A stretch of DNA of 64,000 nt, from the NCBI GenBank assembly GCA_038087875.1, contig CM075992.1, forward strand, positions 3,102,001 to 3,166,000, in the 5' to 3' direction. Shown here one piece after another: positions 6,712 through 54,401 of the stretch. This DNA is from Malacoraja senta (taxonomy: Eukaryota). The position numbers and the translations under genes are program-made. The stretch's first letter is position 1, and each line of letters opens with the position of its first letter. Under the pieces are notes generated by a model that was not told where the DNA came from, ran no database searches, and saw nothing but the letters and a program-made list of their open reading frames with translations.

Positions 6712-8503
6712 TGAGAGGCAGGTTGGGCTAGGCTTCACCTCCTGTCCTCGGGCTTCCTGAGAAGTCACTGATGGCTAGCTTTCACTGTAGTTCTGGGGGC
6801 TCTGAGCTAAATGACAATGGGCTGGAGGAACTCAAAGGGGGGGGGGAATCAAAGAGCTAGGGGAACTCTTAAAAGGGTGATGGGGGGAAGTCAAAGGGTT
6901 AAAAAGTGCAGGACGAACTCAAAGGGTAAAAATAATGTTGGCAGAAATGAAAGGGTAATATTGGAGGAAGTCAAAGGGATAAAAAATAAAGTGCTGGAGG
7001 AACTTGGAGCAATGCACTGCTCTGTGCTTCTGTTAGTGAGGGGAGTCTGAGCTTTCATCCAAGGGTAACGTTTGATCCCATGGTGACAGCAGTGAACTCT
7101 CTGCAGGAACTTTCCAGGAAGTCAAGAATGTTTAATTGTCATATGAACCAGCAACTTTAATGAACCTCGTGGGTTTTCTCCAGGTGCTCCGGTTTCCTCC
7201 CACACTCCAAAGGCCCACAGGTTTGTAGGTTAATTGGCTTCGGTAAAATTGTCCCGAGCGTGCAGGGTGGTGTTAGTGTGCGGGGATCGCTGGTCGGTGC
7301 AGACCCGGTGGGCCGAAGGGCCTGTTTCCGAGCTGTATCACTAAACTGAACTCAACTAAAAGTATACTATAAGGTTCATAAGGTTCATTTATTGTCACAG
7401 ACACCAATTGGTGTAGTGAAATTTCACTGGCCAGGTCAGTCATCCAATTTTTAAAAAGCCACAGACTCAAAAAAACACATTTGAACATAAACATCCATCA
7501 CAGTGACTCCAACACATTTCTCACTGTGATGGAAGGAGAAATAAAGTTCAAGTCCTTCCCTTTTTGTTCTTCCTCGGTCGGGGGCCTCGAGCCCCCCGTT
7601 GACGGGACGGTCAACTACAATAAATAATGAATAAATTAATAATTAGTAGCGCTAGGTAACCAGATTCTAATAGTGCAAAAGCAAAGAAAGATGGATCCCT
7701 AAACTAAACTATAGAAATTGCTGCTGTTTAATCCCAATGAAGACGGTCTCAAAGGTTACGGGGAGAAGGCAGGGGAATGGGGTTGAGAGGGAAAGTTAGA
7801 TCAGCAATGATCGAATGACGGAGCACACTTGCTGGGCTAAATGTAGACAGGAAAATGGTGGAGTAACTCAGCGAGTCAGGCAGCATCTCTGGAGAAAAGG
7901 AATAGGTGACATTTCACGTCGAGACCCTTCACCAGATAGGCTGAATGGCCTAATTCTGCTTACGGTCTAATGATAAACATAATTAACTCTCTAAAGATAT
8001 CAAAGAACTAATGGCAATTCTCCATGTCAAAAATTCCCAGCAATCTGATGTATTCAAGAGAGATGTATAGGAAGGAACTGCAGATGCTGGTTTAAACCAA
8101 AGATAGATACAAAAAGCTGGAGTAACTCAGCAGGACAGGCAGCATCTCTGAAGGGAAGGAATGGGTGACGTTTCGGGTCGAGACCCTTCTTCAATCTGAT
8201 TTAAGAGAGAGTTACAGTAGATATAGCTCTTAGAGCTAACGGAATCAAGGCATATGGGGAGAAAGCAGGGACGGGGTACTGATTTTGGATGATCAGCCAT
8301 GATCATATTGAATGGTGGTGCTGGCTCGAAGGGCCGAATGGCCTACTCCTGCACCTATTGTCTATGTTTCTATCAAGTTAAGCCTCAAAGTTTTATGAAT
8401 GTGTAAAACTGTTCTGGGATGTATTCTGCACATAGGAGTTATTACTGGTCCCTTCATCATATTCTCATTTTCTTCCTGTTATCTGACTATTCATTGCATG
8501 CAG

Positions 8504-8560
8504 AGGAGGTAATATTGGCGGAGGAGGAGACAGACACTGAGGAAAAATCACCCTTTGATG
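8504..8560 (+). CDS. CACNA1A: Cav2.1 exon 9 equivalent (I-II loop)
   Basis: atgcag|AG GAG GTA...GAT G|gtaagg; 57 nt; EEVILAEEETDTEEKSPFD. Confidence 0.95.
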
Positions 8561-11117
8561 GTAAGGCTAATCTTAAGAAAATGTATCTATTCAGTCTTGG
8601 TCAAGAGTTGTAAATGAACCATGTGATGAGAGGTGGACAAAAGTGCTGGAGAAACTCAGCGGGCGAGGCAGCATCTATGGAGAGAAGGAATAGGTGACGT
8701 TTTGGGTCGAGGCTCTTCTTCAGTGTGGGCCATGCGGGGTCCATGGGAGATCTAAAGGAGATCATGCCAGTGTTTAGGAGACTCGAGGAGTTTTCTAATG
8801 TCTAAAGTAATAAGCTGGAGTTCGAAGAAGATTGAAGAAATTTGGATGTATCTCACTGTTTTCTATCAACAATAAAGCATTTATTCATCAAAAGACTGTG
8901 TTTTAAAGCCATATCTGAGAAGAAGCTCCGAAGGTCTCTGTGAGTGAGCTCGCATGCGTTTAGAAGATACCCCCTTCGACCATTCTCATCCAAATAGCGG
9001 CTTGGGTGCTAATTACCTGAAAGATATGAAAATCTGCGGCTACTTTAAGTACGAAGAAGTCTGAAGAAGGGTCTCGACCCGAAACGTCACCAATTCCTTC
9101 TCTCCATAGATGCTGCCTCACCCGCAGAGTTTCTCCAGCACTTTTGTCTACCTTCGATTTTTCCAGCATCTGCAGTTCTTTCTTAAACATGTGATGAGAG
9201 GTGTTCCCTTGCACCCGAACCTCAGATCCACTGCCCCTTTTCCGGGGGTTACGTCCGCCCCCAGGTGGTACTAGAAAGGGTAGACACTAAATGCTGGAGT
9301 AGCTCAGCGGGTGAGGCAGCATCTCAGGAGAGAAGGAATGGGTGACGTTTCGGGTCTCGAAACATCGCCCATTCCTTCTCTCCAGAGATGCTGCCTCACC
9401 CGCTGAGTTACTCCAGCATTTAGTGTCTACCTTTGATTTTAACCAGCATCTGCCCTGGGGGGATTTCCGGGACCGCTGGGCACCGCGGGGGTTAGAATGC
9501 AGCCTTAATAAGGATGGGGAAATAGTTGTTTAGTAGTATATTCGATATTGAATAATATTTGTGTGACTTGTATTATGGTGGTGTTTTTCTGTTTTTAGTT
9601 ATTTTGTATTGTACATGTTATTGTAAATAATTGTATTAATTATTTTTGGTAAGGTTAAAAAAAAAACTTAGATCCACTGGGGGGAATCGAACCAGTGGAC
9701 AGGTGGATTCCCCATGTCCCACCTGACTCCCACCTGACTCCCGCTCTTGTCCAATCCCCCCTCACCTGGATCCATCTTTATCTGGAACATAGACACAAAA
9801 TGCTGGAGTAACTCAGCAGGACAGGCAGCATCTTTGGAGAGAAGGAAAGGGTGACATTTCGGGTCGAGACCCTTCTTCAGACTGTGGAACATATTGTCTT
9901 TCCGCTGACTGGTTAGCACGCCACAATAAACTAAAAACTGAACTGAAACAAAGAAATTAGGTGCAGAAGTAGGCCATTCGGCCCTTCGAGCCAGCACCGC
10001 CATTCAATATGATCATGGCTGATCATCCAGAATCAGCACCCTGTTCCTGCTTTCTCCCCATATCCCTTGATTCCGTTAGCCCTAAGAACTATATCTAACT
10101 CTCTCTTGAAAACATCCAGAGAATTGACCTCCACTGCCTTCTGTGGCAGAGAATTCCACAGATTCACAACCCTCCGAGTGAAAACGTTTTTCCTCATCTC
10201 ATTCCTAATTGGCCTGCCCCTTATTCTTAAAATGTGACCCTTGGTTCTGGACTCCCCCAACATGGGGAACATTTTTCCTGCATCTAACTTGTCCAATCCC
10301 TTAGGGATTTTATATGTTTGGCCCATATCCCTCCAAGCCTGTCCTATCCACGTACCTGTTCTAATGTCTTTTCTGTAATATATTTTCAATCCGTCTCAAT
10401 AGTTTTTAAATGTTTCTGTCAGCAAGATGTAAAGATAGTTCGAAGGTCTTTGCAGCTGCCGATTGGTATCAAAAGGTATCCATGGTGATGCCTAGAGTGA
10501 AAGGCCTGAGGCCTACTTGCTGCCCAGAGCCTGCTGTGCATTGTGGGATACCTCTAGGGTACCGAGGGCCATTTTACCCAGCTCTCCACGCCTGGGAAAG
10601 GTAAGTTTAGAATGGTGGGCAACTCTGACCAGTAAGTACACTAAGTGCTGGAGTAACTCAGCGGGTCAGGCAGCATCTCTGAAGAACATGGATAGGTCAT
10701 GGACATGAATGAGCAGGAGACCTCATTGAAACATAGCAAATAGTGAAAGGCCTGGATAGAGTGGATGTGGAGAGGATGTTTCCACTAGTGGGAGAGTCTA
10801 GGACCACACGTCATAGCCTCAGAATAGGACGTTACTTTAGGAAGGAGATGAGGAGGAATTTCTTTATCCAAAAGGTGGTGAATCTGTGGACTTCATTGCC
10901 ACAGATGGCTGTTGAGGCCAAGTCATTGGATATTATTAAGGCAGAGATTGATAGGTTCTTGATTAGGAAGGGCGTCAAAGGACACAGGGAGAAGGCAGAA
11001 GAATGGGTTTGAGAGGAAAAGATAGATCAGCCGTGATTGTATGGCAGAGTAGACTTGATGGGCTGAATGGCCTAATCCTGCCCCCATCACTTATGAACTT
11101 ATAGGTGACCTTCTTGA

Positions 11118-15069: not shown

Positions 15070-15269
15070 NNNNNNNNNNNNNNNNNNNNNNNNNNNNNNN
15101 NNNNNNNNNNNNNNNNNNNNNNNNNNNNNNNNNNNNNNNNNNNNNNNNNNNNNNNNNNNNNNNNNNNNNNNNNNNNNNNNNNNNNNNNNNNNNNNNNNNN
15201 NNNNNNNNNNNNNNNNNNNNNNNNNNNNNNNNNNNNNNNNNNNNNNNNNNNNNNNNNNNNNNNNNNNNN
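15070..15269. other. Assembly gap (200 N); probably hides exons 12-17
   Basis: Run of exactly 200 N between the exon 11 and exon 18 equivalents. Confidence 0.99.
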
Positions 15270-15805: not shown

Positions 15806-15911
<106 letters not shown>

Positions 15912-34179: not shown

Positions 34180-35400
34180 TAATACCACAATATAATACTA
34201 TAGTAATATAATAATACCACAACACTATAACTACTATAATACTATAGTAGTTATGTAATATGTGCTAACACTATTACACTGTAAATACTTTAATACTCTA
34301 TAATACTATAGTGATATTTAATATATAATATATAATACTATAGCAGTCTATAATATGTACTAACACCATAACACTATAAATACCTCAATACTCTATAATA
34401 CTATAGTAATAAGCATGACTTTTCAAGTCTCGTTTATTTTTTATGTGGTGCTGTAAAGGAGCTTCTGTGATGCAAAACAAATTTCAGACTTTCTAACAAT
34501 AAAGTAATATCGTATCGTAGATGTAATATATTACCCTATAATACTATAATATTGTAGTATGTAATATGTTATAATACCATAATGCTATAAATTAATACTC
34601 AATAATACTATAGTAATATAATGTATAACACCATAATACTATAATTCCATAGTAGTATCTAATAATACCATAACACTATAAATACTTTAATACTCAATAA
34701 TATTATAGTAATATATAACACTATAATACTATAAATCCATAGTAATATATAATAGTACCATAACTATTAATACTTTAGTAATAATAGTATAGTAATATAT
34801 AACACTATAATACTATAAATCCATAGTAATATATAACAGTACCATAACACTATAAATACTTTAATACTCAATAAAATTATAGTAATATATAACACTATAA
34901 TACTATAAATTCATAGTAATATATAATAGTACCATAACTATTAATACTTTAGTAATAATAGTATAGTAATGACAATAAAGGAATCTAAGTCTAAGTGTCA
35001 TAGTAATATATAACACTATAATACTATAAATCCATAGTAATATATAATAGTACCATAACTATTAATACTTTAGTAATAATAGTATAGTAATATATTATAC
35101 ACTATAATACTATAAATCCATAGTAATATATAATAGTACCATAACTATTAATACTTTAGTAATAATAGTATAGTAATATATAACACTATAATTCCATAGT
35201 AATATATAATAGTACCATAACACTATAACTTTAATACTCAATAATACTATAGTAATATATAACACTATAATGCTATAATTCCATGGTAATATATAATAAT
35301 ACCATAACTATTAATAGTTTAATACTCTATAAGTATGTACTAGAGTATGAGTGCTGTAACTCTGGGCTATAACACTAGGCAGTATATAACACTGGGCTAT
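34180..35400. repeat. AT-rich satellite with a period of about 85 bp in its central part
   Basis: AAAT(C/T)CATAGTAATATATAA recurs at 34733, 34817, 34907, 35028 and 35114. Confidence 0.9.
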
Positions 35401-38585: not shown

Positions 38586-38693
<108 letters not shown>

Positions 38694-50300: not shown

Positions 50301-52468
50301 TCTGCCCATCCCATGAACAGGATGGCCCACAGTGTGAAGTAGCAGAGAGCTACCTTTGCCTTTGGCTCTGTATTCTGGAGACTGGGAAGAATTGGGCGGA
50401 GGGGGTTGTGGGTCTCGGACAATTCATTCAAATGCTCTCTCGCACACAAATCTTCAACTTACCACCTGCGGGGTACTACCTGATACTTCACACTGGGGTG
50501 TTAAGGAATTGTTTTACTGCCCTATTTCAGTTGGATTGAAAGGCAATCTTGCAATCTGCACCAAGCCATTCCATCTAGAGTTTGTATTTTAACCTGCAAA
50601 CCAATAACCGTGGCATTTTTCTTCAGTTTCCCATCGACTGATAGTTGTGGCGTTCGATAAGATGTTGTTGCCTGGTTCGGGATGGTCTCTGGATAAGGCA
50701 TGAGTTGACGCGCTGCATATCTTTGCACTGTTGTTGAGGGAGGGGGGTGGTCACAGTAAAGAAGTGTGGGCGGCTTGGTGGCGCAGCGGGTAGAACTGCT
50801 GCCTCGCAGCGCCAGAGACCCGGGTTCGATCCTGACCTCAGGGTGCTGATGTGTGGAGTTTGCACGTTCTTCCTGCGGCCATTTTTTACTATCACTTACT
50901 TCTTCCCACATTCTAAAGACGTGCGGGTTTGTAGGTTAATTGGCTTCGATAAATTGCCCCTGGTGTGTAGGGAGTGGATGAGAAAATGAGATACATACTC
51001 AGTGGGCTGAAGGGCCTGTTTTCATGCTATATCTCTAAACTAAATAACCGATTGGAAGGTAGGAATAGGGATGCTTTATTGTCCCATGTGACTAAGCACA
51101 GTGAGGTTCTTTGCTTACACATACAATGTACACAAATAGCAGCCACCTACGGCACTAACAAAGTTATTTTCAGGAGTATTTCTCCACGAGAGCTGCAATG
51201 GGGATATCCATTGAGTCTTTACTCCTCCAATATGTACATTGCCCACTGTGCATTAAACCCCAGATCCCTGTTTACTTGTTGGAACATCAACAGGTAAATA
51301 TGGGCTGAGCACATGGCCTAACAGAATCAAGGGATAGGGGGGGAAAAGCAGGAACGGGGTACTGATTTTGGATGATCAGCCATGACCATATTGAATGGCG
51401 GTGCTGGCTCGAAGGGCCGAATGGCCTACACCCGCACCTATTTTCTATGTTTCTAACCTGGGTGACTGGGATGGCGGTGACCTTCCCAGGTCCCGTGTAC
51501 CCTGCAGCGGAGGAGATTCATGTTTTATCCAGAGACAGGCACAACCTCGGAAGCCATGCAAAGCGGGCATCTACCTGGAATATCACAGGGAAGGTTGCAT
51601 GCCTGAACCTTCGGTTGGATAACACGGGGAAACAGGAAACAGGATACTGAACAGGCATCCGTGGTTTATACGTTAACCAGCATGGAAAAATCCGCGACCA
51701 CCGTTGGTTTTAAGTTTGACTTCCAATTGAAATGCAACATGGATGCCAGTTAGTATTTTATTTGTAACACTCCTGTTGTGTTTTGTTTTCTAACTGGAAG
51801 AGACGGATTATTTTTGCATTGCGAGGGCTGGGTTACCTCACTGCCCTGCCCTCTCACCAACCTGTGTGGAAATACAATTGGACAGAAAGAGTGTTATAAA
51901 AAATTCTCCACCGACACTGTTCTGCATCCACATCACAACCGAAGGTGACACTGGAAGTTTTAGTCAAAAAAATCAACCTCTCTCTCTCTCTCTCTCCGCC
52001 GAAAATTGAATTGGTTCAGTTCGGTTCGGTGTCCGATAACTGGGGTGATGTGGAGGCAGACTAACTTAAGGGGAGAACTGGCCTGGTGTTTAAAGAGTTA
52101 TTGTCGGGTAACCTGATTGGAGTCGAATGTTGGACTTATAATTGCGTGCTCGATCCTGGTGAAGTTTCCCCCTCCCCCCCCCCCCCCCACCCCATCCAGA
52201 GAAGAGGGCAGCTGCAGCTAATTCTCCCAACGAATTCTGCAACGTCGCATGGCTAAGATAACCGGAGTTTTGCACTCTGATTCTTCAACACCCCCCACCC
52301 CCTGTCCCTATTGCTGCCATGTCTGTTCTGCTCCTCCAGGGGTTTTTTATAACTGTGCTTCCTATTTTCTTAGTCTCATTCTCTACTGTGCACGCAGTTC
52401 GTATTCCAAGCTTTTGTGTCCTCTCTTCACACTGACTTTCTTCTCATCTTTCCTCTCTGCTGGATCAG

Positions 52469-52480
52469 GAACATTATGGG
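52469..52480 (+). CDS. CACNA1A: Candidate 12-nt alternative microexon (exon 24a-like, adds NIMG to the IIIS3-S4 linker)
   Basis: Branch point CTGAC, long pyrimidine tract, tgctggatcag|GAACATTATGGG|gtaata; phase 2-2; resembles Cav2.2 e24a SFMG. Confidence 0.75.
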
Positions 52481-54304
52481 GTAATATACCTGTTCTATTC
52501 CTTTGCAATACTGTCATCAGATTTGCACTGTGTTCTATTCTTTTCTGTGTTTCTCTGCCTCCGCCTCTCAATTTGAATTCTCCTCGTGTATGTATCTATG
52601 TGCCGTCTGATAAATGATTCTGCTGCTTGCCCTGCTCAGTGCAAGGCAATCTGTTACTGTGTTAGACTGTTCCAAAGCCACCACAACCACTTCACCCTGA
52701 CAACCACCGCCAATGCCCCAATGCAGACCTGGCCCTTGTCGTTCAGAACAGTCGGCGTGAGAGAATGGAACGGCTGGGCTTGTACACTCTGGAGTTTAGA
52801 AGGATGAGAGGGCGTCTCATTGAAACATATAAGATTGTTAAGGGCTTGGACACGCCAGAGGCAGGAAACATGTTCCCGATGTTGGGGGAGTCCAGAACCA
52901 GGGGCCACAGTTTAAGAATAAGGAGTAAGCCATTTAGAACGGAGACGAGGAAACACTTTTTCTCACAGAGAGTGGTGAGTCTGTGGAATACTCTGCCTCA
53001 GAGGGCGGCGGAGGCAGGTTCTCTGGATGCTTTCAAGAGAGAGCTAGATAGGGCTCTTAAAAATAGCGGAGTCAGGGGATATGGGGAGAAGGCAGGAACG
53101 GAGTACTGATTGGGGATGATCAGCCATGATCACATTGAATGGCGGTGCTGGCTCGAAGGGCCAAATGGCCTACTCCTGCACCTATAGTCTATTGTCTATT
53201 GTCATAATTGCTAACCCATTTTAAATTGTAACACTTAAGGCGGGCACAGAGGAGCAGCGGTAGAGTTGCTGCCTTACAGCGCTTGCAGCGCCAGAGACCC
53301 GGGTTCGGTTTCAGTTGTAAAATTGACCTTAATGTGTGTCGGGTTAATGTGTGCGGTGATCGCCAGTCGGCACAGACTTGCTGGGCCGAAGGGCCTGTTT
53401 CCGCGCTGCAGGTCTAAAGTCTAAAGCTGATGTAGAATTGATAGCCTGAAAGTCCCTCTTATATATACCGCAAGGAAATACATGGAGTAACATGAAATAT
53501 CTGGAACACAAACTGAATAAAATATGCAGGAATCCCCAGGCAAACGCACAATGCAGCAAGGATTACAGTGCAAGACTGAAATGAATTTCTTACTGCTATG
53601 TTCTTTTTATATGAAGGCAAAAATCCTTACTGTTTTTTTAATCGGTTTCTCAAAGTCAAAGAGCCTTCAGCCTAGAAGGATGGGGAAATTCTTTAAGCTG
53701 CGGATTTCGTCAATGAAGGAAGGTGTCTCATCGACAAGGAGTGTCGGTGATGGAGTCTGTCCATGAGGGCAGATCGTTCATCAAAAGCTACTGTGCTTGC
53801 CCTTCATAGGGCTAAGGCATTGAGCCTCTCATCACCTCTGACCTCAGGGTAGTCAGGCCAATGCAATTACTAACCAAAAAAATAGGAAAAATAAATACTG
53901 GAGGTGCTGTGGTAAAAATATTGTGTTAATACCACAGGAAACCAAGTCTTTTATTCTATTGACCAACAAGGATGTCAGAGGTCATGGGGAGAACTCATGG
54001 GAATGGGGTTGAGAGGGAAAGATAGATCAGCCAGGATTGAATGGTGGAGGAAACTCGATGGGCTGAATGGCCGAATGCTGCTTCTGTGACATGAACTGAT
54101 GAACTTATTCCAGGTGTTCGAGCCAAATAAAAGTGACCGTATTGACTCCAAGTAAGTTGAATTTTGCTCGAACGTGACTTGTTAGAAGTTGGGGTTGGTA
54201 GTTGTGTGGAGATCAGATGAACTCTTGCAAGCAGCCGCAAGACTGAGATTGCTGATTTTGGTGTTGTTCTGTCAAGTGCTCATCGCCTATTGTTTCCTTG
54301 CCAG

Positions 54305-54401
54305 TGGGAGCAAGGGGAAGGATCTGAATACCATCAAATCTCTGAGAGTCCTTCGAGTGCTGCGGCCGCTGAAAACCATCAAAAGGTTGCCCAAGCTCAA
54401 G
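54305..54401 (+). CDS. CACNA1A: Cav2.1 exon 25 equivalent (IIIS4 voltage sensor)
   Basis: tgccag|T GGG AGC...CTC AAG|gtaaca; 97 nt; [32 protein letters not shown]. Confidence 0.97.

Follow-up and report, generated by a model that had tools for sequence, protein, structure and literature searches.

A putative hydrophobic form of the Cav2 microexon e24a in the CACNA1A gene of a batoid fish

A 12-nt element within intron 24 of the gene studied here is very probably the alternatively spliced microexon e24a of a batoid CACNA1A, which, when included, would add the residues NIMG to the extracellular IIIS3-S4 linker of Cav2.1 (Table 1; positions refer to the window, i.e. the whole analysed stretch of 64,000 nt). 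On position, length, phase and orthology, as judged from the DNA and from protein models, the candidate is the e24a of Cav2 channels, and four-residue inserts occur at the same Cav2.1 junction in lungfish, paddlefish, teleosts, frog, turtles, birds, snake and mammals. Exon e24a is already in print for mammals and, in an apparent counterpart, for Aplysia, and its shark form is contained in RefSeq. The one fresh point is the hydrophobic, Gly-ending Cav2.1 insert of cartilaginous fish as opposed to SxxR in lungfish, paddlefish and tetrapods; a literature search covering few subscription journals returned no paper on the cartilaginous-fish form.

The host gene is represented by 16 ordinary exons on the plus strand of the window, all of Cav2 alpha-1 type. 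Of the 87 proteins matching the II-III loop exon, all except three (two with N-type labels, one unnamed) were labelled P/Q-type (alpha-1A), hypothetical or with a domain name by at least one source. The translated exon was identical in 249/304 residues to Cav2.1 of a skate (Rhinoraja), in 233/301 to sawfish and in 215/302 to catshark, and in 33/64 to rat Cav2.2. Exon 27 was identical in 46/48 residues to both sawfish and catshark Cav2.1, as compared to 35/47 for rat Cav2.2 and 30/47 for a teleost Cav2.3. Cav2.2 and Cav2.3 were ruled out as the window gene by their lower identity in exon 27 and by the weak II-III loop match to Cav2.2. By these translated comparisons the gene is the CACNA1A (Cav2.1) of a cartilaginous fish, the nearest of the proteins compared being from skates, and both exons agree with the Cav2.1 assignment of the first-pass annotation.

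Several further features of the window were recorded. Positions 15070-15269 are a 200-nt N gap, and no strong match in the window was obtained for some 200 domain II residues (sawfish 630-829), several exons probably being lost in this gap. The exon following it (15806-15911, 106 nt) ends out of frame, reading SAAISP* in place of the SAANLSIAA of relatives, which is probably an assembly error. A short I-II loop exon at about 8500-8580 matched sawfish Cav2.1 residues 504-532 at 76%; it was unmatched by several other compared proteins and is perhaps optional. An AT-rich tandem repeat with a period of about 86 occupies 35000-35321, in the intron before exon 22.

Table 1. Positions of the candidate microexon, its splice signals and neighbouring exons in the window, and of the paralogous candidate.
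Feature	Position	Strand	Remark
CACNA1A exon 24, IIIS2-S3, ends AFAFT / TTCAC, phase 2	38586-38692	+	
AG-free tract, 56 nt, 80% pyrimidine, 5' of acceptor	52411-52466	+	sequence
CTGAC, predicted branch point, starts at -37, A at -34	52432-52436	+	function predicted from consensus
TGC between tract and AG, -11 to -9, predicted SRRM3/4 enhancer	52458-52460	+	
3' splice site CAG	52466-52468	+	AG without change in 4/4 relative runs
12-nt microexon e24a candidate GAACATTATGGG, NIMG, IIIS3-S4 linker	52469-52480	+	NLMG in 2/4 relative runs
5' splice site gtaata	52481-52486	+	donor G without change in 4/4 relative runs
Downstream YCAY cluster, 5 motifs (52678, 52681, 52687, 52692, 52704), doubtful Nova site	52678-52707	+	
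CACNA1A exon 25, IIIS4, GSKGKDLNT..., starts TGGGAGC	54305-54401	+	
Candidate CACNA1B e24a GAGTTTTCTCGG, SFLG	G000:C3024:346915-346926 (L003:9915-9926)		known from DNA alone

Re-reading of the window reproduced exactly the coordinates, cag and gtaata flanks, 56-nt tract, CTGAC and TGC given in the first-pass annotation. As intron 24-25 (15,612 nt) is of phase 2, the 12-mer adds N-I-M-G in frame, and translation across exon 24, the 12-mer and exon 25 yields AFAFT-NIMG-GSKGKD, the reading proposed earlier. The donor lacks the consensus G at +5. A search of the same genome with the flanks of the 12-mer found no second match. The one sequencing run that may be of RNA yielded a 180-nt unspliced contig spanning 52423-52602, with no joint; as contigs document presence and not absence, it is uninformative on splicing. 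No transcript or junction read with NIMG or NLMG turned up.

The closest protein counterpart was found in Scyliorhinus canicula, where the Cav2.1 model XP_038640697.1 (RefSeq isoform X2) carries SLMG at the exon 24-25 junction, this being its sole difference from the sibling XP_038640700.1 (isoform X5), so that forms with and without the insert are annotated in this shark. With SLMG at the exact junction in a catshark isoform, the 12-mer is very likely e24a. The species of XP_038640697.1 was assigned via the sibling accession and contig; it is a predicted model, known here from the protein alone, and presumably rests on RNA reads. An alignment-based search reached two clusters of cartilaginous-fish Cav2.1, for which 7/7 and (shark cluster) 15/26 members were listed. 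The junction was intact in 21/22 of the listed proteins, and an insert was present in 1/21, the catshark; the ray-like set (cluster 1 plus Mobula) had it in 0/8 proteins. The expectation that gene predictors would miss the exon thus mostly held (20/21 listed proteins without insert), but not for the catshark model.

The chance expectation of such a site was estimated with a microexon filter demanding YAG, an AG-free zone of at least 30 nt, 70% pyrimidine, a GTRA donor, a length of 3-27 nt in frame, no stop, and TGC within 18 nt. The NIMG 12-mer was the only candidate in intron 24-25 (1/1), also when the TGC rule was dropped (1/1), and the only one across the window (plus strand 1, minus strand 0). 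No second, SSTR-like candidate in intron 24-25 passed the filter. Dinucleotide shuffles yielded any candidate in 7/200 whole-intron and 19/200 block-wise runs; the filter was written with the site already known, so that this test lends modest support only. These shuffles are what speaks for a chance AG-N12-GT in a pyrimidine-rich intron that was never an exon. Against it stand the xxMG reading, which a random 12-mer would not share with the annotated catshark SLMG and with SFMG of rat Cav2.2, and the counterpart SFLG in the paralogous CACNA1B (see below), which chance would likewise not supply. We consider this explanation extremely improbable, and it is largely refuted by the catshark isoform.

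Four public sequencing runs of other organisms (X1, X3, X5 and X7) cover the site. The relatives are close, with about 95% identity across the whole stretch, which makes the conservation seen in them shallow. For X3, 0/24 differences, and for X7, 1/29, fell within 52409-52486 (complete difference lists); the latter is an A to C change at 52473, replacing Ile by Leu to give NLMG, and is shared by X5. X1 and X5 together have six unlisted differences, all of them changes of C or T, with three unplaced in each, so AG and donor G are intact in all four runs. In the two relatives with complete lists (X3, X7), no change is listed in the tract, CTGAC or TGC. Pooling these two, 1/39 variable sites lay in the 78-nt core versus 5.2 expected (P 0.027, the stretch having been chosen post hoc).

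The same data bear on the idea that the 12-mer is a decaying remnant of e24a that rays and skates have ceased to include, or include hardly at all. It would account for the lack of the insert in the ray and skate proteins compared, for the donor without G at +5 and for the eroding YCAY cluster, but the splice sites, tract, CTGAC and TGC are all kept and the sole listed exonic change is conservative. Moreover, gene models often omit microexons: 259/287 Cav2 proteins matched by junction pattern were without any insert, despite inclusion of e24a in 94% of human cortical Cav2.1 transcripts (PMC11580629). Decay appears very unlikely, and we favour an alternatively spliced e24a.

A second Cav2 gene of the same genome, on G000:C3024, bears the Cav2.2-type sequence KVMSECSLEKNE. 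Its intron 24 (20,686 nt) holds a candidate e24a between ag and gtaagg, coding for SFLG; its 5' side carries a CTGAC and a pyrimidine tract as well as two TGC. It was the only match in this intron of a relaxed scan (AG-12-GT/GC ending hydrophobic-Gly); stricter scans barring an AG just upstream did not pick it. A second AG lies 5 nt upstream of the acceptor, and its use would shift the frame. A degenerate SFMG-type DNA pattern had no match in the animal's own genome. Some 5.4 kb within CACNA1B intron 24 are repeated in tandem at 95-99% identity (G000:C3024, about 353500-364100), through either a recent duplication or misassembly. Exon searches of the assembly for CACNA1E (Cav2.3) found none, the gene being either absent from the assembly, missed by this first look, or lost.

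For the history of the insert, the forms seen in other Cav2 proteins were compared. Cav2.1 inserts of the SxxR type were SNVR in lungfish, SSAR in paddlefish and macaque, SNQR in frog, SSTR in a bat, and SNSR and SSSR in turtles, birds and a snake, while teleosts had SLSG, GGSG and GGGG (seen as protein only); two odd inserts, GG and VFFQLDCS, look like prediction artefacts. Cav2.2 had SFMG in rat and five residues in a bat model. The e24a-type inserts named in the first-pass annotation were found to agree for rat Cav2.2 (SFMG, protein), Cav2.3 (NALG, PDB 7xlq) and human Cav2.1 (SSTR, PMC11580629). In a search of 50%-representative proteins, 26/149 new proteins matched the domain III pattern, none with an insert of the NIMG type, and no jawless-fish (lamprey or hagfish) Cav2 sequence was recognised among the matches, whose rows were without names.

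Parsimony by hand, with the two paralogs as outgroups, assigned a hydrophobic, Gly-ending insert to the common ancestor of jawed-vertebrate Cav2.1. Arg would then have originated either twice or a single time in bony vertebrates, teleosts having reverted in the latter case. Since the cartilaginous-fish insert is hydrophobic and Gly-ending like those of Cav2.2 and Cav2.3, the polar SxxR of lungfish, paddlefish and tetrapods is likely derived, as far as sequence comparison can tell. The earlier proposal of an ancestral xxMG-type e24a fits this reconstruction, while the jawless-fish sequence that would bear on it was not found. The fuller scenario, to which we would give about an even chance, starts from a vertebrate Cav2 ancestor with a hydrophobic S/N-x-x-G microexon, which sharks and rays retained in Cav2.1; in bony vertebrates the Cav2.1 copy would have been rewritten to a polar, charged SxxR, so that an insert neutral to gating became one shifting activation.

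The exon could also be real without being ancestral, its xxMG likeness to Cav2.2 and Cav2.3 having arisen by convergence under splice-site constraints on the first G and the last GG. Consistent with this, the NIMG and SFLG 12-mers of the same animal have only 7/12 bases in common and their flanks gave no significant alignment (CACNA1A versus CACNA1B, best E 0.58); the teleost inserts SLSG, GGSG and GGGG also end in G; the apparent Aplysia counterpart is AFDS (PMC10657410); and the protein searches yielded no lamprey or hagfish sequence. On the other hand, all three paralogs share the pattern small-x-hydrophobic-Gly (NIMG, NLMG, SLMG; SFMG, SFLG; NALG), and the Arg of the SxxR inserts shows that the last codon is free to differ, Gly thus not being imposed by splice-site constraints. 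Convergence is possible but rather unlikely.

Neural microexons controlled by SRRM3/4 are 3-27 nt in size; the NIMG 12-mer, with 12 nt, lies in this range and preserves the frame. The TGC upstream of the exon, noted in the first-pass annotation as the SRRM3/4 signature, is located as described and belongs to the motif class of bioRxiv 2024.09.17.613571, where a UGC separates the branch point from the AG in 79% and 74% of the members of two SRRM3/4 microexon classes; CACNA1 is unmentioned in the main text of this preprint. In the Cav2.1 and Cav2.2 of rodents, e24a is promoted by Nova2 (PMC12149502, PMC5633781). The YCAY motifs attributed to Nova were indeed present on both sides of the exon, upstream at 52376, 52427 and 52444. 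However, the downstream cluster is one of nine places with at least four YCAY in 45 nt within intron 24-25, and of its four core motifs (52678-52695) two, three and two are kept in the three relatives covering it, so that it is eroded in 3/3. With a cluster that is unremarkable and partly lost in relatives, Nova control rests on the mammalian papers only, and the local YCAY motifs are weak grounds for it.

Human CACNA1A e24a, GAGCAGTACACG, encodes SSTR in the same phase as the NIMG exon and is included in 10% of cerebellar transcripts, next to the cortical value above; it moves the activation V50 from -11.8 to -15.4 mV (about -3.6 mV), an effect modelled as that of an added Arg near voltage sensor III, whereas SFMG of rat Cav2.2 is reportedly without gating effect (all PMC11580629). 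We propose that the batoid e24a is skipped by default and that SRRM3/4, acting via the TGC and perhaps aided by Nova as in rodents, would bring about its inclusion in neurons. Inclusion would place NIMG in the outer loop beside voltage sensor III, which it may slightly tune. NIMG is hydrophobic and adds no charge, as is true of SFMG, so its gating effect should be weaker than that of SSTR, with a smaller shift in activation.

The NIMG exon reveals no new kind of element; its value lies in filling a hole in the annotation and in adding rays and skates to the known range of this channel microexon. Should the proposed history be right, Cav2.1 went from a hydrophobic to a charged insert only after cartilaginous fishes had branched off. 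Ray Cav2.1 channels including or lacking NIMG would then form a natural experiment on how a microexon acquires function, offering an easy comparison by electrophysiology.

Compared with known systems, the candidate resembles SRRM3/4 microexons (bioRxiv 2024.09.17.613571) in its length, a multiple of three, and in its set-back tract and branch point with UGC in between; the likeness is one of sequence layout. Human Cav2.3 (PDB 7xlq) likewise has four extra residues in the same place, NALG, following N-x-hydrophobic-G, a likeness seen between protein residues. Rat Cav2.2 SFMG (PMC10657410, PMC11580629) corresponds in position, length and the pattern x-hydrophobic-Met-Gly, but NIMG sits in the paralogous gene, and the candidate of the same animal's CACNA1B is SFLG. 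Catshark XP_038640697.1 represents the orthologous gene, with an insert ending in MG at the same junction and a sibling isoform lacking it; the ray insert has N-I in place of its S-L. Human CACNA1A e24a (PMC11580629) shares gene, junction, length of 12 nt and phase, starting with G and having its last codon completed by the T of exon 25, but while human SSTR is polar and adds an Arg, the NIMG of the ray is uncharged and hydrophobic.
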